From Escherichia phage BSBP01: 54,030 bases of DNA. A model generated the notes under the pieces. The model saw nothing but the letters and a program-made list of their open reading frames with translations, did not search any database and was not told the origin of the DNA. The DNA lies in the sequence record PQ231202.1. One strand, 5' to 3'. Made by a program: the position numbers and the translations under genes. Each line of letters begins with the position of its first letter. The first letter of the stretch is position 1. Shown one piece after another: positions 11,582-54,030 of the stretch.

Positions 11582-11824
11582 TTAGCCTCTTACTTTCAGG
11601 AAGTCTGGATGTGCGGCAGTTGCCACAACTTTGTGATGTTTGTCGTTCTGGATTGCTTGCCAAACATATTCAGGATATGCGGCATTCTTCCACACCAGTT
11701 TGTTTTCGTAAATTGATGTGCCACACATTAGGTCTGCCAACATTATTGCTCTGGTCCTAGTATTAACCAAAGCATGAGAAACAACGCCATCACGATTAAT
11801 GTATTGATAGAGTGCATAATTCAT
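11582..11824 (-). CDS. Hypothetical protein
   Basis: 80-aa ORF. Confidence 0.4.
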   Translation of the reverse strand: MNYALYQYINRDGVVSHALVNTRTRAIMLADLMCGTSIYENKLVWKNAAYPEYVWQAIQNDKHHKVVATAAHPDFLKVRG

Positions 11825-11826
11825 AA

Positions 11827-12033
11827 CTAAACTCCGTATCTCTTGTATTTGTCGCCTTTGGAGACTTCCAAATATTCCTCAAATGTGAAAGTCCTCTCCT
11901 TGCTGTTTAATCTTGCCAACGACAAGTCTGCAACAAATTCGGCATTAAAACCTTTGTTAGAGGTCTTTCTCATGTGTGCCCCACCTCGTGTAAAGAATGT
12001 TGCACCTTCTGGTAAATCTTCGAAATTAGTCAT
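11827..12033 (-). CDS. Hypothetical protein
   Basis: 68-aa ORF, first gene after the repeat-rich non-coding region. Confidence 0.4.
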   Translation of the reverse strand: MTNFEDLPEGATFFTRGGAHMRKTSNKGFNAEFVADLSLARLNSKERTFTFEEYLEVSKGDKYKRYGV

Positions 12034-43361: not shown

Positions 43362-44000
43362 TTATTTCTCTACTTGATAAGTTACGCGTTCAATCCAGTT
43401 GAACACTTTGAATACAGAATCACCCACTTTACCATCAACTAAATGTTCGTCCACTGTTACGCGGGTAGGTGTGTCTGGGAGGTTGATGTATCTGCGAGAA
43501 TCGCCCGTGAAATCAAAACCATCACGATGCAAACGCACAATGAGGACAAAATCATAAGCAGACTCAATGGCAACGACTTCATCACCAAAACCGCCATCGG
43601 GATAAATGACATTAATAATGCCACCCATACGCCCCGCGAGTTCTTCAACACGAGCAGCTTCAACCTTACCGAAGTAGTCTTGTCCGTAGCGAGGTTTATA
43701 CACATCTTCGCTAACGTGAATAAGAGCCTGACGAGGTGTTCTGCCACCAAGACCTGCAAGGGAGATAGAGTCTTTGAGGTCACGGTCCGAAGCGTAGTGA
43801 ATAAACTTGTCCACATCAACTTGAAAGTGTTTGGCAGTATGCTCATACAGTGCATCCTTAAACTGGTGTTTAATGAACTTGCGCTTACCGAGAAAGTATG
43901 GTTCCTCGGCAGCAACAATCTTATTTGCGATGGTGTCTTTACCGCAGCCAGGAGGTCCATTGAGAATAACAGCTAGTCGCTTAATCAAAACTTTCCTCAC
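43362..44000 (-). CDS. P-loop nucleotide or nucleoside kinase
   Basis: Walker A ILNGPPGCGKDT; start uncertain because the longest ORF overlaps the ligase 3' end. Confidence 0.55.
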   Translation of the reverse strand: MRKVLIKRLAVILNGPPGCGKDTIANKIVAAEEPYFLGKRKFIKHQFKDALYEHTAKHFQVDVDKFIHYASDRDLKDSISLAGLGGRTPRQALIHVSEDVYKPRYGQDYFGKVEAARVEELAGRMGGIINVIYPDGGFGDEVVAIESAYDFVLIVRLHRDGFDFTGDSRRYINLPDTPTRVTVDEHLVDGKVGDSVFKVFNWIERVTYQVEK

Positions 44001-44736
44001 TTTTGTCTGCACGTAAACGAACGAGTGACGGGAACCGGAACTTACCAGCTTCTGTCTTCTCACGATATCGAACTTGCATAATCGAACCAATTAGCTCGTG
44101 GCGATGTTCCCACAACCACTTACGAATCAATGTGTTAGATTCTGGAATACCGTGGTCTGCCAGACAATCTTTCACCATTGAACCAGCACTGCCGTAGTTC
44201 GAAGAGATAGAACCACACATACCTTTAAGAGCACCAGTACCTTCTTTCATACCAGTAATCTTCACATCGGCGTATTTATATGGTACAATCTTCCACCACT
44301 TACCTTTTGCATCACGGACAATGATACCTTCATGACCAAGCGCCAGATATTTATCCATCAATGCCTTAAGGTTTTCATTGCTTGGGTCTTTGCACCAGCC
44401 GATGTACAAGCGTGGGTCAACAGCACCATCACTCAACTCATACACATTGTCCTGGGTTAGTGGGATGCTTGGCGGGTCAATACGTCCGAGGATGCTAGAA
44501 GTCTCATTCCAACTATTACGGAATATCTCAGCATCTCTGAACTGTAAGTGGTCCAAATGAGGTAGGGGTTTGGAATTACGACTCCAGACACTACCTGATT
44601 TATTACGGATAGCTCGAATTCCGTCAATCTTGATGAAGAGTTCACAGCGCCCTTTGATACGGCAGTCTGGGTCTTCCCAATCATGTGCGTGAGCCTTTGT
44701 GTATCTTGTACCATCATCGAGGAGCTTAATAGACAT
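43981..44736 (-). CDS. Compact ATP-dependent DNA ligase
   Basis: Motif I KIDGIR near residue 34, EGIIVR, WWKIVPYK, and motif VI-like FRFPSLVRLRADK. Confidence 0.6.
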   Translation of the reverse strand: MSIKLLDDGTRYTKAHAHDWEDPDCRIKGRCELFIKIDGIRAIRNKSGSVWSRNSKPLPHLDHLQFRDAEIFRNSWNETSSILGRIDPPSIPLTQDNVYELSDGAVDPRLYIGWCKDPSNENLKALMDKYLALGHEGIIVRDAKGKWWKIVPYKYADVKITGMKEGTGALKGMCGSISSNYGSAGSMVKDCLADHGIPESNTLIRKWLWEHRHELIGSIMQVRYREKTEAGKFRFPSLVRLRADKSEESFD

Positions 44737-45250
44737 TAAGATTCTTTCTCAGGTATTCTCGAACAGCATTCTTGCGTCCGATTTTGGTTTTAGGAACTGG
44801 CTCTATTTTAGCAAGATTGCACTTGGCAATTTGCTCTTCGTCAGACAATTTGGCAAATGCAATACACTTCTTCTCAATGACTGCATCACGTCGTGATACA
44901 CCATATCGTTCCATGTATGTAATAATGCCGTGACAATCTTTACACAGCAATTCCAAATCTTCTGGCTGAACCAGTAAAAGGTTGTCCACAAAGCGGTGCA
45001 GGTCTTCCAATTTAAGGAGGCCACCAACTTGGACTTTGTGGTTTACTTCAATATCTTTGAGCTTATACAACTTCTTGCAATGGTAGCATTGAATGTGGAA
45101 GATTGGTTTCTTTGAGTCACCAACCTTCAATGCAATGCGTCGAGATTGTATTAGCGCGAGTTTGCTTGGGTGTTTAGACCAAACACTTCGAATAGCAGAT
45201 TGGAGCCAAGATACAAACTTGGCTTCCGTTCCACAATAACCGTAAGCCAT
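44726..45250 (-). mobile_element. HNH homing endonuclease (free-standing)
   Basis: CYHC ... NH ... CKDCH pattern; between exonuclease and ligase genes. Confidence 0.65.
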
Positions 45251-45261
45251 TCCAACTCCAA

Positions 45262-46323
45262 TTATTTCTGGAGGTACTCTTCTTGAGTGAGGATACGATT
45301 CTCTTTAAGGTCAAAGTATTCGTTAATGTTCTTGTAATGCCACAAGCGAACACAATTACCTTTTTCAATTTGATGGTGCATGTAAACAAGACGGCCCACT
45401 TTGAGCAGCTCTTGTTCCCAACCATCTCCGAAGCGCACAATATATGCACCAATAACTTTCTTCAAACCTTCTGCATAGGAGGTTGTACCATCCAGCATCT
45501 CGAATGAAGCAACTGCACCAATGCCATCACGACGGAAATAAGTTTCTCCGGCTTTGGCACCAGTTTTGTAAATTCTTTCTTCAAGAACTCCGCAACCCAT
45601 AACGTTATCCGTTGAGTCGCCAATAAGCAATTGATGCAGGAAGAATTTGGGGCCATTGCCTTTAACTTCTTTCTTCTTCGACTTGCCATTATCCTTGATG
45701 ATTAATTTGAGTTCACCATAATCTTTAGGGATTACGATTTTCTCACCAATACCCTGGGTTTCACGTTCCCATTGGTAATGTTTGATTACTGGACCAACAC
45801 CACCGTTCTGCCCGATTTGGCGCAAGTCTTTGTCCAACGATGCAATCCAGACTTCATCATATGTGCAAGGACCAATGCGCTTGAGGCTCTTAATCTCATT
45901 ACGTTTGCCCATTGTTGCTTCGTATTCATGACGGGCGAATACAGCCAGAAGGTCATCTGCTTCCAGACCTTTCATCCACATCCCATTCCATGCAACCATA
46001 ATATGTGCTTTCGCATTCTTGAGGTTTTCTGGACGCCATACGTTATCACGGTTGCCCTTATAGTCAGGAGCAAATACGTGCCTCATGGTTTCAGATGGGG
46101 ATACAAAACTCATAATCTCCGTAGCGCCAGAGCGCTTGGCGAGGAACTCCATTTTGGAGTCTATGGACATTTGAATCTTAGCAAAGTTAATATCTTCGGG
46201 GTCTTTGCCATACTCTTCCGCAGCGCAGTGGCTGAATGCAACCATGTCTGCATCTACAAGAAGCAGAACTCGTTTCTTACTCACTTTGGTAAGCTCCAAA
46301 TTAAAGGCTCCCGAAGGAGCCAT
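45262..46323 (-). CDS. 5'-3' exonuclease (T7 gp6-like FEN)
   Basis: LLLVDADMVAF and LLIGDSTDNVMGCG motifs. Confidence 0.7.
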   Translation of the reverse strand: MAPSGAFNLELTKVSKKRVLLLVDADMVAFSHCAAEEYGKDPEDINFAKIQMSIDSKMEFLAKRSGATEIMSFVSPSETMRHVFAPDYKGNRDNVWRPENLKNAKAHIMVAWNGMWMKGLEADDLLAVFARHEYEATMGKRNEIKSLKRIGPCTYDEVWIASLDKDLRQIGQNGGVGPVIKHYQWERETQGIGEKIVIPKDYGELKLIIKDNGKSKKKEVKGNGPKFFLHQLLIGDSTDNVMGCGVLEERIYKTGAKAGETYFRRDGIGAVASFEMLDGTTSYAEGLKKVIGAYIVRFGDGWEQELLKVGRLVYMHHQIEKGNCVRLWHYKNINEYFDLKENRILTQEEYLQK

Positions 46324-46331
46324 ATTTATAA

Positions 46332-47198
46332 TTAGAACGGCATACCTGTACCGCCAGCAGCACCACCTTCCGCTTCACGCTGTGCTTTTGCAGCAGCCTG
46401 TGCTTCCAGTTCAGCTTTCATAGCTGCATCAACTTCTTCATCAGAAGCCTGATTCGGTACAGCGCCTTCATCGGCAGGTTTGCCGCCTAACAGTGCAGAC
46501 AGCTTGGTCTTGTAGAAATCAACACCGGAAGTAATACGGTTCTTGATTGCATACGGAGATTCGCCACCAGGCAGCTTGTTGAATACTTCCAGGTCCGGCT
46601 CAGACATGTCGAAGAAGACAGTCGGGTTAACCAGTGCTTTAGCTTCTTTCTTCTCTTTGGATTTCATCGGAGAGAAGGTAGCAACTTTGTTCGCAACCTG
46701 ACCCGCATTCTTACCTGACTGCTTGGTATATTGAACAATGCCAACAATCAGAGGTTCGCCCAACCAATCCGGCAGGTTCTTGGCAGGATGGCCCTGAATG
46801 CCTTGTTCCAGATTAGGTTTAACTTCCAGTGCATCAATCGCCTTAGCGAATTTGTAGATGTGGGAGTTCTCACCCATGAAGCCGTCAGCATTATAGGTAA
46901 ACTCAAAGTCAAACCAACGCGGCTTGTCTTCAAGATTCTTCGCCATCATGATGCCGTCATCTTCGTCTGGGTCTTGGACCATGACCATTTTACCTTCACT
47001 GTCAACTTCTTTCATGTACTCGTCGAGCAGTTCGAAAGTCACCAGAAGTTTCAGAGACGGGGTAGGATATTTAGCAGAACCAGGCTGTAAGCCCAGGTCG
47101 ATAATACGGCAAACACGAGCAGGATAACCACCCGCTTCCAGTAATGGTGCAGCAGAAGGAGTCTTGTTCGAGGCCAGTGTAGGAGCAGCAAATGCCAT
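46332..47198 (-). CDS. Putative ssDNA-binding or annealing protein (T7 gp2.5-like position), C-terminus ending PF
   Basis: 288 aa, acidic C-terminal region ending GTGMPF, located between polymerase and exonuclease. Confidence 0.35.
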   Translation of the reverse strand: MAFAAPTLASNKTPSAAPLLEAGGYPARVCRIIDLGLQPGSAKYPTPSLKLLVTFELLDEYMKEVDSEGKMVMVQDPDEDDGIMMAKNLEDKPRWFDFEFTYNADGFMGENSHIYKFAKAIDALEVKPNLEQGIQGHPAKNLPDWLGEPLIVGIVQYTKQSGKNAGQVANKVATFSPMKSKEKKEAKALVNPTVFFDMSEPDLEVFNKLPGGESPYAIKNRITSGVDFYKTKLSALLGGKPADEGAVPNQASDEEVDAAMKAELEAQAAAKAQREAEGGAAGGTGMPF

Positions 47199-47214
47199 TT
47201 TGAGTACCTTTAAA

Positions 47215-47460
47215 TTACAGTTGAGTGATAACTAGGGAGAAGTCCAGGTCGTTCATACAAGAGATTAACTCTTGCTCATTGACGACAGGACCAGATAAAG
47301 TTTTAATGAATGCCTGATACATTGAATTGGCAGCATAATCACTTCCAAATAATGTTCCAGCATTCTCGGTAATTACAGACAGCACAGCTTCCCGTGCGTC
47401 TTCACCTTTCTTGACAAAATGGAAATGGTCCACTTTGTCGAATATAGATACAACAACCAT
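47215..47460 (-). CDS. Hypothetical protein
   Basis: 81-aa ORF. Confidence 0.45.
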   Translation of the reverse strand: MVVVSIFDKVDHFHFVKKGEDAREAVLSVITENAGTLFGSDYAANSMYQAFIKTLSGPVVNEQELISCMNDLDFSLVITQL

Positions 47461-47954
47461 TAGTGAATCTCTGCGTAGTTATCGCCAAATTGTACATCAC
47501 ATGCACAATCACGATTGAGTTTAAGTTCTTTGTTGGTCCGGTCCATTGCTTCATTAAGCAAGTCCGTCCACAAATCACGGAAACCTTTCTTAACTTGGAG
47601 AATCAATTCATCATGGAATTGTCCAGACAGAAGCGGGTCACAGCCCCAACGTTCATTGCAAATTGCAATAATGTTGTTACACCAAATATCAAACACATAT
47701 GCACCAGTACCCTGACACAATGTGGAGAAGCGGTCTTTCTCGGTGCGCAATGAATACCAGAATTTGTTTACTGGATTCTGTTGCCACATCTGACCATCAA
47801 CTGTGATAACTTTGGTGTTTGCAGCAATCTCTTTAATAGACCAGTTCAAGTCCCAATATGCTTTATGCAGTCGTGCAGCAGTAGTCTGGTCACAGCCAGC
47901 AGAACGAGCTACAGTTGGCACACCAGCACCATATTGACCATTTACATTGTTCAC
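47460..47954 (-). CDS. DNA polymerase, C-terminal fragment (rest of motif B and motif C)
   Basis: Begins GQYGAG completing motif B; contains QFHDELIL motif C; ORF opens with GTG immediately after an in-frame stop. Confidence 0.75.
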   Translation of the reverse strand: MNNVNGQYGAGVPTVARSAGCDQTTAARLHKAYWDLNWSIKEIAANTKVITVDGQMWQQNPVNKFWYSLRTEKDRFSTLCQGTGAYVFDIWCNNIIAICNERWGCDPLLSGQFHDELILQVKKGFRDLWTDLLNEAMDRTNKELKLNRDCACDVQFGDNYAEIH

Positions 47955-48083
47955 ATGAAGTCGTTAATTTCATGCCGGAACGAATCCAGCTGCATGTCAC
48001 CATGCAGAGCAGACTATATCATCACCGACCTATGTCGGGTCCCCCGTTTCCACCCACTTGGGTGTACGCCTTACGGCTAGTCG

Positions 48084-48521
48084 TTACACGTTCATGAAAG
48101 CATCTTGACAATCGTGATGAAGCTGGTGGCAACGCTTACAAAGCAACTCAAAGTTGCTCCTAACATTATTGCTTCTATCATGGTCACGATGATGAATCAC
48201 ACGTTCCGTATAGTGTACGTTCAGCAGATTCTTACCACACCTTTCACAACACTTAAGTTCTTCAAGCATTTCCTTTCTGGCACGTACATATTCACCTTTG
48301 CCGGAAGAGTAGGTTTTGCTTTCTGGACCTTTTGCGTGTTCAAAGTTTCCAGTGCCAGCACCACAGTTTATACCTTTCTTAATACACTGATTAACATAAG
48401 AACGGTCTCTGCACTCTTGCGCTGCAATATCAGAACAAGGTTTGCACTTGGAACTTCTTGGTCCTGTGGGAATGAACATCTCTCCACAAGAACATTTCTT
48501 AGGTTGGTAATTTCTTTTCAT
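48084..48521 (-). mobile_element. HNH homing endonuclease inserted inside the DNA polymerase gene
   Basis: Cys-rich zinc motifs and HHRDHD..N..CKRCHQLHH; lies between the two polymerase fragments. Confidence 0.8.
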
Positions 48522-48590
48522 GCTTCGCTCGGTATTGTCTCTGCGGCAGAGAGTTCCACCGAATTAAAGGGATTTTACATGCGCATCAAT

Positions 48591-50048
48591 TTACGCATAG
48601 TTTGTAGTCTTAAACATTGGACGTTGTTTACACTTCTTAATCCCGTCCTTGTGGTCCTGAGATTCCTGTTCGGTAATAAATCCACCAATTACGCCGATTG
48701 CAAGGTGAGCATCATAGTCTGGTGCCAACTGCTTCTTAACGTATTCAGGGTCATACATCCATTGGAAGTGGTGTTTACAGCGGTCTTCCAGTGAACACAA
48801 GTCAGAGCCTAACTGTTCGTAGTCTTCGCGCCACGCTTCCAACATTGAACGCAGTTCTTCACCGCCAAATACACGAATAGAAGGGAGGTTAACAAGTTCG
48901 CGGTGTTTAAGACGTAAAGTATTGGTAAGGCCACCACATCGTGCAGTAAGGTATCCGTCTTCATCGACGTCGCGAAGGAAACCGTTAACAACAGAGAGAC
49001 GGTGTTTATATACGCCCATCCCAATAAGATGTTGAATACCAGAGTCGGGGTTTCTTTCCGCCAGCTTATGCAAGCTCGGACATATTTCAGGATTGCCATC
49101 TTCATCCTTCACAGTGATTTGTGGAATCTGGCGAGTTTCACCTGTTTCCTTATTACGGTCGAACTTAAAGGTTTCTGGTTCCCAACCTAGGCTGAACAAC
49201 CAATCTTTGATTTGAACATGTGAACCAGCATTAGGCTTCTTGTAACCTTTAAGAACCTTGATAGCCAGGTCTGGGTCTTTCCAGTCCAAACCGTTCGCAT
49301 CACAAATAGCCTTCCACTTAATTCCAGTGGCAGACAGTTGCCCGTTCATCTTGTGGCATTTAGCTGGACGGGTCTTGATAACATACTCCGGAACACGAGG
49401 CATTGATGCCTCCAATGCGTCCGTCTTCTCTTTAATCATTGGTTCCAGCTTGGCCTTAAATGCCAATGCCTTCTCAATGTTCAGCTTCCAGCGAGTGCGT
49501 TGTTGAATAACTTGTTGACGAGCTTTTGTCATCAGATATTCAACGAAGCGTTTAACTTCGCCAGGAGATTTATAAATCTTCAAGAGTTGAATGTATTGCT
49601 GTTCCCACAGCTTCAACTGAATCTTGCAGTCTTCCATCACACGATGGTTGTACTCTTCTTGAGTTTGATTTTCCCAATCTTCAATGACTGGTTTTGGCAC
49701 ACCAAACTCTTCGCCGTAACCTTCTAAGCCGTGCTTAACACGACGAGGTTGCAGATACCAACTAATAAACAAAGTATCAATAAACACACACTTGGAGGTA
49801 TCGTATCCAAGGAATATGAGCGCTTCATTATCAAAGCACATACTATTGTGCATGACCAGCGTAGGTCCGGTATCCAAGAATGCTTGTACAGATTTTCTGT
49901 CAGTCCACTCTATTACATTCTCTTCCCTGGTTTGTATATCTATAAAACCAATATTGTGCAGACGAGGTGCGGACTGTTGCTTCATTTGCTCAAGCAAGCC
50001 TGTAGTCTCTATATCTGCGGCATACATATTATTCCAAGGGTATAACAT
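48591..50048 (-). CDS. DNA polymerase (family A), N-terminal fragment with 3'-5' exonuclease domain
   Basis: Exo motif AADIETTG; ends ...RPMFKTTNYA inside motif B. Confidence 0.8.
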   Translation of the reverse strand: MLYPWNNMYAADIETTGLLEQMKQQSAPRLHNIGFIDIQTREENVIEWTDRKSVQAFLDTGPTLVMHNSMCFDNEALIFLGYDTSKCVFIDTLFISWYLQPRRVKHGLEGYGEEFGVPKPVIEDWENQTQEEYNHRVMEDCKIQLKLWEQQYIQLLKIYKSPGEVKRFVEYLMTKARQQVIQQRTRWKLNIEKALAFKAKLEPMIKEKTDALEASMPRVPEYVIKTRPAKCHKMNGQLSATGIKWKAICDANGLDWKDPDLAIKVLKGYKKPNAGSHVQIKDWLFSLGWEPETFKFDRNKETGETRQIPQITVKDEDGNPEICPSLHKLAERNPDSGIQHLIGMGVYKHRLSVVNGFLRDVDEDGYLTARCGGLTNTLRLKHRELVNLPSIRVFGGEELRSMLEAWREDYEQLGSDLCSLEDRCKHHFQWMYDPEYVKKQLAPDYDAHLAIGVIGGFITEQESQDHKDGIKKCKQRPMFKTTNYA

Positions 50049-50055
50049 AATTACC

Positions 50056-50463
50056 TCAGTATTTTGGAGTATTCTTCATGTGCCAATTTTCGTGACACTG
50101 CTTACAAAGCCATCTTACCATCAAGGGTTTCGAATAGTCGTCGTGGTGTGCCTCCAGCTTCTTATCTTGAGTACACATCATACATCTGTTTGGTTTAACT
50201 ATCCTTCCAAACTTAAGTGCAGCATTTACCAAACTTCTTGCACGCTCCCTCTCAGGCCGCACTTCTCGGTATCTTTTGCACCTGGCATTGTTGAGTTCCC
50301 GCTCTCGTTCAATATTACGAACAGGCTTCTCTGGTAATGGTGCAGATTTGTACTCTGCACGGTACTTTAAGCTTTTGCACAACTTGCACCAAGATGAACT
50401 CTTGTGAAAGCCTGCTTCATCTTTAGGTACTTTGCACTTAGGACAAATTTTCATCATTTCCAA
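50056..50463 (-). mobile_element. HNH-type endonuclease (free-standing)
   Basis: CPKC, CKLC and C-terminal HHDDYSKPLMVRWLCKQCHENWH. Confidence 0.55.
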
Positions 50464-50518
50464 TTATTGTAAAGTGAGGGCTACGCTGGTGGGCGAACCA
50501 TGCAGCGCAGCAGCTCTG

Positions 50519-52282
50519 TTATTGATGTGGACCGTTCTTCTTAGTAAGCTGAACAATCTCTTTGGTTTCGAACAGCGAGTCATCCCAAGAACGTTGAATA
50601 ATTCGACCAGATTCGGTGTCATAATACGTCTTGAAGCCTTCTGTTTTACCACTCTTACGAGCTTTGATGGAACGAATAATAGAACAGTTTGGGTCAACTG
50701 CCTGGCTATTACGCTCAAAGCCGAACATACCATGAGAATATTTAGCAGCAGCACGTGAGCCAGTAAAGTCTGACTTCTTGATACGTCCACCATCTTCATG
50801 AGGTCGCTGACCTTTTGCAACAGGGTTAAGGTGCGACAGAATATTTACATGGAACTGATATTGGTCTGCCAGCTTAGTAATATCTGCATACAGCTTACCC
50901 AAGAAGTCGTTCTTCTCTGAGGCAGAAATCCCTTCCGATAAGTAGGTTAAGTTATCAAGGACAAACATATCAATGTCTGGTCCAATCTGACGAAGAATCG
51001 TCTTTAACCCATCCCAGGTTTCATAAGGGTCTTCTCCAGCTTGCTTGCGGTCCCAAATCTCCATGTTACGAAGCATCTTCGCAGCAGTTTGACGGAACTT
51101 AGCTTCATCATATCGAGGGTCTTCACGAGTAAACGCAGGTTCCCAATATGGCAAGTTGTCATTAAGGCCAGCCATTCGGCGCAATGTTTCTGTAGGAGTT
51201 TCCTCCATGTATGCAGTAAACACTCCCCAATCGTGCTTGGTAATGTTGTGATGCACAATCTGACGGGACAGCGTAGTTTTACCACCACCTTCTGCACCAC
51301 CGATTGTAATAACTTCGGCTCGACGTTGACCAAACATTAAGTCGGTTAACTTTGGCCAAGGATAGTCCACACCCTGTTCAACCTCGTCATCAAGCTCTTC
51401 CATAAGAAGTTCTTTGTTGACAAGTGCTGTAGGCAGAGGACGAGCCGCACGGAACACAACAGCAGATTGAGTAGCTTTGAGCAAGCCACGCTTCAAACAA
51501 TCGTTGGCATCGTTAGCTGGAAGTGTTGCAATCATTGCACCAGGCAACAATCGACACGCTTCTTTTGCAGCTTTACGTCCAGGTTCGTCATCATCAAATA
51601 CGATAACAACCTGTTCCCAACGTTGCTTAATTTCTTCTGCAACTGGTGACAAACATTTGTGTACGGAATCACTCCCGTCACTCAAACTAATTACAGCAAA
51701 ATCCAAATCTTCATATGCACCACCACGGTTCATAGTCTTGAGGATTTGACGCAATGCGATACAGTCTTCTTCACCTTCAGTGATGAACAATGTCTTACCG
51801 CCAATTGCTTTTGCAGCCAACCAGTTGTAGGGTTCGTTGCCTTGTGTATCGCCAACAGACCACATAACTTTCTTGTTCAGAAGTTTAATCTTCCAACGAA
51901 CAAGTTTGCCATTTTTGGTGTAGCCATGTGCCAGAGCATTTGGAGTCTTCCCATCATACTCTGAATACAGAAGTCGAACACCAGCAGCTTTCCAGAATTC
52001 TGGTTCGATGCTGCGATGGGTTAAATCAAACGGAGGACAAGCAGTGATTTCATCAACTTCTTCCTGAATTTCTTCTGGAGTCTTGACTTTAATCTCTGGA
52101 ATGTTCTCCGGATTATTGCCATAAGGATTTGGTACTAGAACGCCACACGCAAAGCAGTAACCAGAGAAGTTCTTATTACCAGCTTCATCGACATTCAACC
52201 AAACCTGTAAAGACTTGCCAGATGTGGATTTACAGTCTGGTACATCGTGCTTAATCTTAGCCACACATTGCTTGACGTTCAT
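50519..52282 (-). CDS. Bifunctional DNA primase-helicase (T7 gp4-like)
   Basis: N-terminal zinc finger, TOPRIM FITEGEEDCIAL and VFDDDEPG, helicase P-loop GGAEGGGKTT. Confidence 0.85.
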   Translation of the reverse strand: MNVKQCVAKIKHDVPDCKSTSGKSLQVWLNVDEAGNKNFSGYCFACGVLVPNPYGNNPENIPEIKVKTPEEIQEEVDEITACPPFDLTHRSIEPEFWKAAGVRLLYSEYDGKTPNALAHGYTKNGKLVRWKIKLLNKKVMWSVGDTQGNEPYNWLAAKAIGGKTLFITEGEEDCIALRQILKTMNRGGAYEDLDFAVISLSDGSDSVHKCLSPVAEEIKQRWEQVVIVFDDDEPGRKAAKEACRLLPGAMIATLPANDANDCLKRGLLKATQSAVVFRAARPLPTALVNKELLMEELDDEVEQGVDYPWPKLTDLMFGQRRAEVITIGGAEGGGKTTLSRQIVHHNITKHDWGVFTAYMEETPTETLRRMAGLNDNLPYWEPAFTREDPRYDEAKFRQTAAKMLRNMEIWDRKQAGEDPYETWDGLKTILRQIGPDIDMFVLDNLTYLSEGISASEKNDFLGKLYADITKLADQYQFHVNILSHLNPVAKGQRPHEDGGRIKKSDFTGSRAAAKYSHGMFGFERNSQAVDPNCSIIRSIKARKSGKTEGFKTYYDTESGRIIQRSWDDSLFETKEIVQLTKKNGPHQ

Positions 52283-52286
52283 TTAT

Positions 52287-52967
52287 TTATTCCTGGTTGG
52301 TCAGAGCCTTCCAACAAATTGGGAATAGTTCTGACATGATTTTATTCACTTCTTCCGCAAACAAGCGAACTTCATATTGCGCATGTTCGGAGGAACGTTG
52401 ATTATACATAGATGCCCAGCCATAAAGTGAGCCAGTCCAAATCCATTCAGTCATCATGGATTGTGGAAGAACCATGCGAGCTTGCTCTGGGGCAATCCCC
52501 AAACCAATTAACGTTTCATACTCTGCGATGCAAGCCTTGTTATAGCTTTCCATGCGATAATGAATATCGTCAGCAAAATCTTGTGGCAACGGTTGTGCAG
52601 TCTGAGTCATCAACTTTTCAGGACGACCAAATACAACACCTGGAACAAAGCATTCAATAGAGATTGCTTCGCCATCTTTGTAACGACGGCTAACCTCATT
52701 CCAACTAAAGCCAGTTTGATGTTTGCCAAGCTGACGTGCAATGAAGATTGGAGCTTTGCAACGCAATGTTACCTGTGCATGACGGAACGGCGTAATGTGT
52801 TTATGCTTTGCAAGAAACTCAATCAGCTTCTCGTCACGTAAAGATATTTCATGTGACTCTGCACCATAAGAAACTCGTGCAGCATTAACAGTTGTGAGGT
52901 CGCTGCCCATTGAATCTACTAATGTTGCGGTTATTTGTGGCTTAACCATTATTTGCGTATTCTCCAT
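52287..52967 (-). CDS. thyX: Flavin-dependent thymidylate synthase ThyX-like
   Basis: Aligns by eye along its length to ThyX; RHR position reads KHQ. Confidence 0.7.
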   Translation of the reverse strand: MENTQIMVKPQITATLVDSMGSDLTTVNAARVSYGAESHEISLRDEKLIEFLAKHKHITPFRHAQVTLRCKAPIFIARQLGKHQTGFSWNEVSRRYKDGEAISIECFVPGVVFGRPEKLMTQTAQPLPQDFADDIHYRMESYNKACIAEYETLIGLGIAPEQARMVLPQSMMTEWIWTGSLYGWASMYNQRSSEHAQYEVRLFAEEVNKIMSELFPICWKALTNQE

Positions 52968-53394
52968 GATATATTTTTCTTGCTACCTTGATAGCAGCCT
53001 CGGCATCTTCGAGATTGTCAAAGCTGCCAACGTATATTCGTTTACCATCTCCAACACGAATCCTCGCCACAAACTTTCCGCGAGCATCTTTATGCACACC
53101 TTTTACCCCAGATGTGTTGTTAGAGTTAATTCTTCTGTTGTGACAGTTCTGCAACTGTGTTGCTTCTCGCAGGTTGGATGGAACATCGTTAAAAGTGTTT
53201 CCATCAATATGGTCAACCTTATCTACAATCTTGCCAGTATTCATGTAGTACACAAGTACGTGCCTGCAAACACTGTAGTGCTTGCCGCCAAGGTATAGTG
53301 CTGTTTTGGCGTACCTTCCACTGCAAGTCCAATTTATTTGGTCAAACCTTTTTGCAGCCGTGTCTAACACAAATTTCTTGGACAGCCTATTCAA
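52942..53394 (-). mobile_element. HNH endonuclease with AP2-type DNA-binding domain
   Basis: HIDGN..N HNH core and GVKGVHKDARGKFVARIRVGDGKRIYVGSF AP2-like segment. Confidence 0.65.
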
Positions 53395-53453
53395 TGTTTG
53401 CTCTCCGGTTCATATGGTGGGAGATAAATTAGCTCCGCACCATGATAATGGTA

Positions 53454-53684
53454 TTATTTTAATGACGCCTGAATTTCTTTCATAGACGCATTTAGTACAG
53501 AACGCTTTTCATATTCGCGTTGATTGTACGTGTTTGTCAGTGCTTCCGCAGCTTCTATTGACAAGATTGCAAAACCGCCAAAGGCATTGCGAACTTCTTC
53601 AATATCCATGTGCAGGACTTCACTTGTGATTTGGCTGGCTATTACGGCCTTATAAATCTCTTCGGCAATTTCAGCAGTTTTCAT
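53454..53684 (-). CDS. Hypothetical protein
   Basis: 76-aa ORF, first gene after the junction non-coding region. Confidence 0.4.
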   Translation of the reverse strand: MKTAEIAEEIYKAVIASQITSEVLHMDIEEVRNAFGGFAILSIEAAEALTNTYNQREYEKRSVLNASMKEIQASLK

Positions 53685-53880
53685 GTTTCTCTCCAGTTAA
53701 AATTTAAGTAAGTGCCCTGAGTATTACAAAACACTTATTAAATTTGATTCGAACCGCCCAAGTGAATCAGCCTTGTTTATGGGGACCATCGGGGAAAAGT
53801 ATAAACCCGCTTAATGCTCGCATCATGTTTGAACATTAAGAACCCTCGACTTGCATATTTCATGTGTATAGGAACATAGT

Positions 53881-53897
53881 CTGGATTTTGAATCCAG
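53881..53897. other. Perfect hairpin (7-bp stem CTGGATT/AATCCAG) adjacent to the terminal repeat
   Basis: ctggattttgaatccag. Confidence 0.3.
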
Positions 53898-53903
53898 CTA
53901 ACT

Positions 53904-54030
53904 TCGGGATGAGGAGTAACCCAAATAAAAGCCTGAACTTTCTTTCTGCACAACACAATCAGCGCAACTAAGCCGTATCGCTACGGTATGCCAGACGCTC
54001 TCTTGAGCCTTTTGAACAGAGGCATAACTG
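53904..54030. repeat. Second copy of the 127-bp terminal repeat
   Basis: Identical to 1-127. Confidence 0.9.

Follow-up and report, generated by a model that had tools for sequence, protein, structure and literature searches.

The replication module of Escherichia phage BSBP01 (sequence record PQ231202.1) has been analysed computationally within the whole 54,030-nucleotide (nt) stretch of DNA, hereafter the window. An earlier note, made from the sequence alone, had proposed that four open reading frames (ORFs) at 44726-45250, 48084-48521, 50056-50463 and 52942-53394 are HNH endonuclease genes packed among the replication genes. All four ORFs were found, on the minus strand, and one of them lies in a group I intron that interrupts the DNA polymerase gene (pol). 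The features that concern these genes are the following (aa, amino acids):

44726..45250, minus strand: conserved core nuclease with an HNH fold, 174 aa, flanked by the genes for the 5'-3' exonuclease and the ligase and overlapping the latter by 11 nt
47460..47938, minus strand: pol exon 2, 159 codons, matching positions 219-381 of Pfam DNA_pol_A and 1073-1233 of PHROG 17, and 93-98% identical to nt 1457-1935 of intact pol
47939..48592, minus strand: group I intron, IA2-like and without P2, 654 nt, splitting pol in motif B (..KTTNYA/CQYGAG..)
48084..48521, minus strand: intron HNH endonuclease, 145 aa, an ORF in the P6a loop
48593..50048, minus strand: pol exon 1, 485 codons plus a T, matching positions 667-1071 of PHROG 17 (DNA polymerase), and about 90-91% identical to the 5' part (to nt 1454) of pol from phages SA91KD, PO103-1 and GJ1
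50056..50457, minus strand: free-standing candidate homing endonuclease gene (HEG), about 133 aa, in the intergenic spot between the primase-helicase gene and pol
52942..53394, minus strand: free-standing candidate HEG with HNH_3 and AP2 domains, 150 aa, TTG start, between a hairpin and thyX

An HNH-type nuclease core was found in all four products, that is, the beta-beta-alpha-metal fold of the HNH superfamily, in which strand 1 ends with the catalytic His and metal/zinc ligands are present; they represent, however, three different kinds of gene. The cut-off of the Pfam HNH/HNH_3 models (PF01844/PF13392) was reached by 52942-53394 (35.5 bits against 24.8) and not by 48084-48521 (18.4 and 17.4 bits), and these models gave no match for 44726-45250 or 50056-50463. 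Sporadic presence and absence at a fixed site among near-identical genomes was observed for the intron, 50056-50463 and 52942-53394, and not for 44726-45250, which none of the examined relatives lacks. The comparison with related genomes lacking the insertions, which the earlier note had recommended, located the insertion site of the intron exactly and provided precise presence/absence patterns of the two free-standing HEGs among genomes more than 90% identical. The module is best read as three independent homing elements and one resident nuclease, with a rough probability of 0.85. The high density of selfish elements claimed before stands for three of the four genes, which behave as homing elements among essential replication genes, and fails for 44726-45250. 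The earlier observation is therefore real with corrections and its interpretation partly supported, as it holds for three of the genes, fails for the fourth and missed the intron. Phage pol introns with HNH genes, HNH-AP2 genes and clusters of HEGs at replication genes are already documented (PMC3428280, PMC10448857), and this locus, a real but ordinary feature, leaves current understanding unchanged.

A homologue of 44726-45250 was found exactly once in each of 633 phage records, and the gene keeps its place beside the exonuclease gene across the family and in Pakpunavirus, which contradicts its former inclusion among the selfish elements. Its neighbours in SA91KD, PO103-1, GJ1 and 4HA13 are without exception the 5'-3' exonuclease gene on one side and the ligase gene on the other, and the protein is 100% identical to GJ1 gp41. 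The 70 clustered homologues showed 46-97% identity, and nearly all contigs longer than 40 kb among them measure about 52-55 kb. Nonsynonymous divergence (dN) from SA91KD was 0.2%, and divergence from 4HA13 was close to that of pol (dN 0.16 for the nuclease gene and 0.13 for pol; synonymous divergence, dS, 1.36 and 1.62). Sliding identity revealed no mosaicism in its flanks. A homologue of Pseudomonas phage PaoP5 (Pakpunavirus), PaoP5_115 (35% identity, E 6e-31), directly follows a FEN-like exonuclease gene (the two genes in locus L032, 3069-4681), and in ICP1 (locus L033, gp176-gp179) the homologue is found three genes downstream of an exodeoxyribonuclease gene. The alternative that all four HNH genes are homing endonucleases, this one having merely gone to fixation in the family, draws on its HNH core with a DNA-binding tail, as in many HEGs, and on several records annotating 'HNH endonuclease', but it is unlikely in view of the single copy in all 633 records, the constant position in each fetched relative of two Chaseviridae genera, the exonuclease adjacency kept in Pakpunavirus, the pol-like divergence and the unmosaic flanks with the 11-nt ligase overlap. 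Judged from these sequence comparisons, 44726-45250 is not selfish and is a core gene of the phage, which should not be counted as a mobile element. The PaoP5 packaging HNH protein orf050 (PMC13083879) was considered as its equivalent and rejected; the two share no similarity, and the true homologue is PaoP5_115.

The core of this resident nuclease is a beta-beta-alpha-metal module like that of T4 endonuclease VII (C55xxC58, N70-H71, N90, C103xxC106-H107), followed by a C-terminal SAP-like helical domain. T4 endonuclease VII (gp49) is the closest fold by structural similarity only, as 71 residues align at 17% identity and the window protein differs from it by an extra N-terminal helical segment and the SAP-like C-terminal domain. 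No Pfam match, including Endonuclease_7, was obtained at E <= 0.01, and nothing significant was found among PDB chains with the single sequence or with a profile of 24 homologues. The nearest known system is T4 endonuclease VII together with the 'endonuclease VII' core gene of T7-like/phiKMV-like replication modules, by analogy with which junction cleavage by 44726-45250 is putative. The comparisons suggest that the pairing of exonuclease and HNH-SAP nuclease is conserved across unrelated phage families, and the nuclease family is without a Pfam or NCBIfam model. From fold and gene order we lean towards a resident structure-specific nuclease that would work with the exonuclease, as T7 gp3/gp6 or T4 gp49. 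More tentatively, the gene may belong to an uncharacterised HNH(EndoVII-like)+SAP family that would be the conserved single-copy partner of FEN-type 5'-3' exonucleases in unrelated virulent phages (Chaseviridae, Pakpunavirus, ICP1-like and others), with a debranching/resolution role such as those of T7 gp3 and T4 gp49.

Upstream of pol, the window carries a clean extra 426 nt with respect to PO103-1 (50048-50473), which hold the zinc-finger/HNH gene. The ORF proposed at 50056-50463 is present, but its probable start is ATG 50457 or 50454, not TTG 50463; its stop lies 7 nt before the pol ATG. The same site contains a 71%-identical (aa) homologue in Shigella phage 2KOFFS and an unrelated HNH gene (gp36) in GJ1, and it is empty in SA91KD and PO103-1. 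Other homologues were found in Yersinia phages PYps16N and PYps23T (67% identical), with distant paralogues in Mangalitsa, Bp10 and many other phages. The N-terminal part of the product is a zinc finger with two CxxC pairs, and its C-terminal part is a core of the HNH type (C94xxC97..H106H107D108D109Y..V116RWLC120..H124..H128). Both CxxC pairs of the zinc finger, C94xxC97, H106-H107, D109, Y110, V116-R-W-L-C120 and H124 do not vary in the homologue alignment, and D108 and H128 hardly vary. The AlphaFold model (pLDDT 94) has a C-terminal strand-strand-helix, the top Foldseek matches, none of them significant, were the HNH enzymes PacI, T5 SciA and Cap5, and PHROG 2340 labels the protein 'endonuclease'.

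Pfam, NCBIfam and PDB sequence searches with this protein, as single sequence and as profile, gave nothing significant, and a member-wise Pfam scan of 44 homologues returned zinc-ribbon noise only. The earlier note had held that an HNH fold in this gene would be refuted if domain searches did not support it, and this is literally what the sequence-profile libraries yielded, because Pfam, NCBIfam and PDB sequence searches were silent even through 44 homologues; it is outweighed, however, by the predicted fold and the invariant motif. With moderate confidence, 50056-50463 is considered a probable HNH-type nuclease of a subfamily without a profile-library model. Alternatively, the gene could encode a zinc-finger protein that binds DNA or acts in regulation, or it could be what is left of an inactivated HEG. 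This would agree with the failure of HNH models and PDB sequences to match this protein and 43 of the 44 aligned family members, and with the weak matches to zinc-ribbon families, but in view of the same fold and motif a non-nuclease is considered unlikely.

The neighbourhood of this HEG is mosaic:

49760..50280, minus strand: mosaic block that spans the HEG's nuclease half and pol from its start to about nt 290, with 37-83% identity to every relative and flanks above 90% (sliding identity)

Its boundaries, near 50280 and 49760, are sharp, and one breakpoint falls inside the HEG between the zinc-finger and nuclease halves; the zinc-finger half is 85-93% identical to the copies of 2KOFFS and of the metagenome contig L029. 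The block may be a co-converted or cleavage-immune tract, and such a pattern would be expected of an enzyme that cuts the pol 5' end, the resident allele being a variant that was co-converted and resists cleavage. The block also agrees with a published study in which the limits of recombination were marked by nuclease genes (PMC10448857). As in the HEGs of that study, 50056-50463 is located upstream of an essential gene, in a spot with different HEGs in relatives, with a sharply bounded divergent tract reaching into pol; it differs from them in its family (PHROG 2340), which is without a Pfam or NCBIfam model, and in the breakpoint inside the HEG itself.

The second free-standing HEG, 52942-53394, lies in a 462-nt stretch (52935-53396) that is missing from PO103-1, an aligned gap being found in PO103-1, GJ1 and 2KOFFS. 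The same site is occupied in SA91KD and Pel53 by genes with 82.7% amino-acid identity. The last 8 nt of the gene overlap the thyX start ATG 52949 (ATGGTTAA), as in SA91KD. The AP2 DNA-binding domain reported previously was supported (E 1.2e-5, 26 bits, under the cut-off of 33.3) beside the HNH_3 match, and PHROG 99 was matched at 1e-42. The dN/dS ratio was 0.07, and values of 0.07-0.23 were obtained for the free-standing HEGs, which indicates purifying selection. The opposite flank of thyX carries a 39%-identical paralogue (gp34) in GJ1. Barth et al. 2023 (PMC10448857) described genes of this HNH+AP2 class and found that HEGs cluster at essential genes, those for polymerases included. The gene shares with IPA-HNH of ICP1-like and other phages (Barth, Dunham & Seed 2023; PMC10448857) the N-terminal HNH_3, the C-terminal AP2 and the location beside an essential nucleotide-metabolism/replication gene, and it differs in that its identity to the family's remaining HNH-AP2 genes, GJ1 gp34 for example, is only about 39%.

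The location of 48084-48521 inside the polymerase gene was correctly noticed, but the insert is a 654-nt intron and not a bare gene. The uninterrupted pol of SA91KD, PO103-1 and GJ1 has 1914-1935 nt (1935 nt and 644 aa in SA91KD and GJ1). In BLAST comparison with intact pol, the window aligns to nt 1454 and resumes at nt 1457, with 656 nt between both points. The sequence GCG-TGT-CAA of intact pol is reproduced by one junction only, in which T48593 is the last base before the 5' splice site and G47939 the last before the 3' splice site, and therefore the insert comprises 654 nt. The PHROG 17 match of exon 2 directly continues that of exon 1, and the joined exons encode 644 aa in frame and without interruption, the same length as in the intron-less relatives. 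The apparent TAA stop of exon 1 is formed by the last exon base and the first two intron bases. The insertion point in the protein (..KQRPMFKTTNYA/CQYGAG..) is located between the Ala and Cys codons of ..NYA/CQYGAG.., which we take to be motif B, in the O-helix of family A polymerases, by its consensus RxxxKxxx(F/Y)xxxYG.

Both group I boundary rules hold, with a U before the 5' site and a G (G47939) before the 3' site. Within the first 14 bases of the intron (AAAUUGAUGCGCAU), GCGCAU has the potential to pair with the last bases of exon 1, AUGCGU (48598-48593), in a 6-bp P1 that has a U.G wobble at the splice site, and AUUGAU with the first bases of exon 2, GUCAAU (47938-47933), in a 6-bp P10. 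The predicted ligated exon junction reads ...CUAUGCGU/GUCAAUAUGG... (exon-1 end also as ACUAUGCGU). The RNA elements are the following:

48579..48590, minus strand: internal guide AUUGAU-GCGCAU (AUUGAUGCGCAU), read from the sequence
47939..48083, minus strand: 3' half of the ribozyme core, with P7 (GACUA 48082-48078 / UAGUC 48016-48012), P7.1 (48077-48068), a GUA linker (48067-48065), P7.2 (48064-48051), P3' (48048-48040), P8 (48038-48025), J8/7, P9 (48006-47991), P9.1 (47989-47975), P9.2 (47974-47954) and the terminal G

The P6a stem CAUGAAA/UUUCAUG (48522-48516 / 48099-48093) closes the HNH ORF and is kept in an ORF-less copy of the intron. The minimum free energy (MFE) fold of the ORF-deleted intron contained P3, P4, P5 and P6a, and that of the whole intron including the ORF was uninformative (z = -1.7). 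In the polymerase introns of Pf-WMP3, PhiI and W31, the assignment to IA2 was based on the absence of P2 and on P7.1-GUA-P7.2 (PMC3428280), and the window intron likewise has no P2 and has GUA between P7.1 and P7.2.

The pol of phage 4HA13 (vB_EcoM_4HA13) is interrupted at the same codon by an intron of 86.6% nucleotide identity and the same architecture, with a 145-aa HNH ORF in the same loop, and RefSeq annotates this gene as a two-piece join; homing endonucleases are coloured in the 4HA13 map of the ICTV (International Committee on Taxonomy of Viruses) Chaseviridae profile (PMC12842549). The non-coding 71 + 145 nt that flank the ORF are 91-97% conserved between both phages, whereas identity is 84% in the ORF (85.5% in amino acids) and 75-85% in the pol exons, 4HA13 being a phage of another genus. 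Three compensatory pairs distinguish the window from 4HA13 (one in P7.2, two in P9.2), and the P8 and P9.1 loops differ. The ORF-less copy, at the same pol site of the metagenome contig L029, has cores 97% and 90% identical to those of the window and scored 65.2 bits (E 8.5e-15) with Rfam Intron_gpI (RF00028), above the gathering threshold (GA) of 50 bits. Exact copies of a 27-nt J8/7-P7-P9 core were found in 17 IMG/VR contigs, and five searched loci pass the Rfam GA. RNAalifold analysis of ten 3' halves of the family recovered P7, P7.1, P7.2, P8, P9, P9.1 and P9.2, and 17 of the 36 pairs have changed in a compensatory manner.

Similar IA2 introns with a nicking HNH enzyme are known in family A polymerase genes of Pf-WMP3 (I-PfoP3I), T7-like PhiI and W31, SPO1/SP82 (I-HmuI/II) and Bastille (I-BasI). 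Like the window intron, they interrupt a conserved region of the polymerase, lack P2 and have P7.1-GUA-P7.2, and their ORF starts in P6a and carries the HNH motif in its C-terminal half; exon 1 meets a stop codon where the intron begins (PMC3428280). They differ in the insertion site, as at least three others are listed in PMC3428280 and the window site is at the motif-B Ala/Cys codons; nicking is only predicted for the window enzyme.

The intron ORF begins 71 nt into the intron, and its TAA stop lies inside the conserved J6/7 sequence GUGUAACGACUA. Its product has a Cys-rich N-terminal region and an intact C-terminal HNH motif (CCERCG..HHRDHD..NN..N..CKRCHQLHH), and matched PHROG 25862 'HNH endonuclease' (6e-25) and a YajD-like HNH family (5e-6), with Pfam HNH and HNH_3 matches only below the cut-off. 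The dN/dS ratio against the 4HA13 ORF was 0.10, and an exact-sequence look-up of the ORF in public assemblies returned nothing on record. The product is probably a nicking enzyme that would act near the insertion site, because of the analogy with I-HmuI, I-BasI and I-PfoP3I (PMC3428280).

The claim that the HNH gene splitting the polymerase shows active invasion holds in that the element recently moved between phage lineages, and not in that pol is simply split, as the element is a group I intron. The introns of 4HA13 and of the metagenome contig L028 (ENA OGVK01001484.1) are identical in their cores (100%) and almost so in the ORF (99.5%), whereas the pol exons are just 77-81% identical, a sequence pattern that indicates a recent horizontal transfer. 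In contig L029 (ENA OERD01000251.1) the pol exons are Carltongylesvirus-like (85-93% identical to the window) and the 3' core of the intron is 99.3% identical to that of 4HA13. This ORF-less copy (L029 1128-1367) has 240 nt, at the same pol codon, with an 8-codon remnant (MNKSFMNV) and a core of the 4HA13 type, not of the window type. Synonymous divergence between the window and 4HA13 was 0.87 for the intron ORF and 1.62 for pol. Among the alleles with the intron, those of the window and 4HA13 have the synonymous codons GCG (-2) and CAA (+5) in common, read likewise in L029, and the four intron-less alleles have GCT/CAG; the G at -2 completes Watson-Crick pairing in P1. Selection for splicing would account for these two shared changes, and so would a short tract of co-conversion. 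In the 50,697 phage records searched, this intron was found in 4HA13 only, and the window intron is the second variant of the polymerase motif-B intron and the first in a Carltongylesvirus-type genome among these records. The public relatives and the window form a natural series of intron-less pol, intron without ORF and intron with ORF, with identical introns in divergent hosts, and the locus could become a simple system in which to study the intron/HEG invasion cycle and the mosaicism that HEGs delimit in coliphages.

Some observations weigh against the reading of the module as three homing elements and one resident nuclease. The resolvase-like role proposed for 44726-45250 derives from fold similarity and gene order. 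The exons that flank the intron show no long co-conversion tract, with the two shared synonymous changes only. The Rfam gathering scan over the whole window gave no match, and the intron surfaced only in an E-value-threshold search of the sub-region, in which Intron_gpI matched 47990-48602 over the full-length model with 32.5 bits (E 2.9e-6); this score is below the GA because of the 438-nt coding insert in the loop. The doubt over the group I identity is removed by the 4HA13 intron, the L029 score, the 27-nt core and the RNAalifold covariation.

It is very unlikely that the polymerase is truly in pieces, with an HNH gene lacking a functional intron and two fragments that are translated separately and assemble, as in the NrdA of Aeromonas phage Aeh1 split by mobE, since the in-frame TAA that ends exon 1, a GTG in frame 16 nt before exon 2 (47954) and the sub-threshold Rfam score of the window are opposed by the break in the middle of the O-helix motif RxxxKxxxYxxxYG, the lack of a Shine-Dalgarno sequence before this GTG, the flanks more conserved than the ORF or the exons and folding as a group I core with covariation, and the ORF-less copy that passes the Rfam GA. 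An intein was also considered and rejected, given the TAA stop at the exon-1 boundary and the HNH ORF flanked by 71 + 145 nt of non-coding structured RNA.

With a group I intron in its gene, the polymerase is most likely made whole through splicing of the RNA. The pol transcript would fold into P1 and P10 through the internal guide and into a P3-P9 core with P7.1/P7.2, and the IA2 intron would splice itself out, so that a normal 644-aa polymerase would be made. The HNH enzyme encoded in P6a most likely nicks or cuts intron-less pol alleles of co-infecting relatives near the insertion site, and repair from an intron-plus genome would copy the intron into the cut allele. The zinc-finger/HNH and HNH_3-AP2 genes most likely spread by intron-less homing, in which these free-standing HEGs would cut the neighbouring essential gene (pol or thyX) in genomes without them and be co-converted with the adjacent sequence. 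The EndoVII-like protein with the SAP domain probably acts with the 5'-3' exonuclease in debranching/resolution or host-DNA breakdown. Gene callers would report this pol as two fragments and a stray HNH gene; it should be given instead as a joined coding sequence with an intron.

The window is a complete phiEcoM-GJ1-like phage genome of the Carltongylesvirus type (Chaseviridae). Its last 10 kb (44000-54030) are covered in 82-87% at 92-95% identity by SA91KD, PO103-1, SKA49, ST32 and GJ1, Escherichia phages of the phiEcoM-GJ1 group (Chaseviridae, Cleopatravirinae, Carltongylesvirus). Positions 1-127 and 53904-54030 are an identical 127-nt direct repeat, most likely an overlap from circular assembly, and because the same 127 nt stand at both window ends the genome is taken as complete and circularly assembled, with 53,903 bp. 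Terminal repeats of about 3 kb are described for the family and are not resolved in this record. The remaining assigned genes of the module are the following:

43981..44736, minus strand: ATP-dependent DNA ligase, with weak NCBIfam ligase matches and annotated as DNA ligase in SA91KD, PO103-1 and GJ1
45262..46323, minus strand: FEN-type 5'-3' exonuclease, with Pfam 5_3_exonuc_N at E 2.6e-7 (31 bits, cut-off of 34.3 not reached) and PHROG 107 at 1e-58, annotated as 5'-3' exonuclease in relatives
50519..52282, minus strand: primase-helicase (T7 gp4-like), with Pfam Toprim and DnaB_C/AAA_25 and PHROG 239 at 7e-146
52287..52949, minus strand: flavin-dependent thymidylate synthase ThyX, with Pfam Thy1 at 144 bits

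The gene at 45262-46323 had been called a ligase; it is the exonuclease gene, and the ligase gene is that at 43981-44736. Every gene of 44000-54030 is on the minus strand, and the order of transcription is HNH-AP2 (53394-52942), thyX (52949-52287), primase-helicase (52282-50519), zinc-finger/HNH (50457-50056), pol exon 1 (50048-48593), intron with HNH ORF (48592-47939), pol exon 2 (47938-47460), a small ORF (47460-47215), a 288-aa protein (47198-46332), 5'-3' exonuclease (46323-45262), conserved HNH (45250-44726) and ligase (44736-43981). The probable start of ThyX is ATG 52949, not 52967, to judge from the SA91KD annotation with the same 8-nt overlap. A sigma-70 promoter and terminator scan of 44-54 kb gave results no better than shuffled sequence, and phmmer and motif scans of the rest of the window revealed no further HNH genes.

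The 288-aa protein encoded at 46332-47198 (PHROG 862) matched the NCBIfam 'phage replication initiation protein, NGO0469 family' below the threshold (59.6 bits, cut-off 75). A small mosaic patch was found in the ligase gene (44400-44699; 67-80% identity to SA91KD, 96-100% to PO103-1 and GJ1). The 5' end of the exonuclease gene (46000-46299) is 72-84% identical to four relatives, with 95-100% elsewhere in this region, and the window has no HEG at this spot; in 4HA13 an extra gene lies just upstream of the exonuclease gene. Outside the module, a stretch of about 386 nt (11585-11970) that is missing from PO103-1 and SA91KD contains small minus-strand ORFs of 80 and 68 aa. The small 81-aa gene downstream of pol (47215-47460) exists in two alleles, with 96-100% identity to PO103-1 and 42-71% to SA91KD, GJ1 and 2KOFFS.

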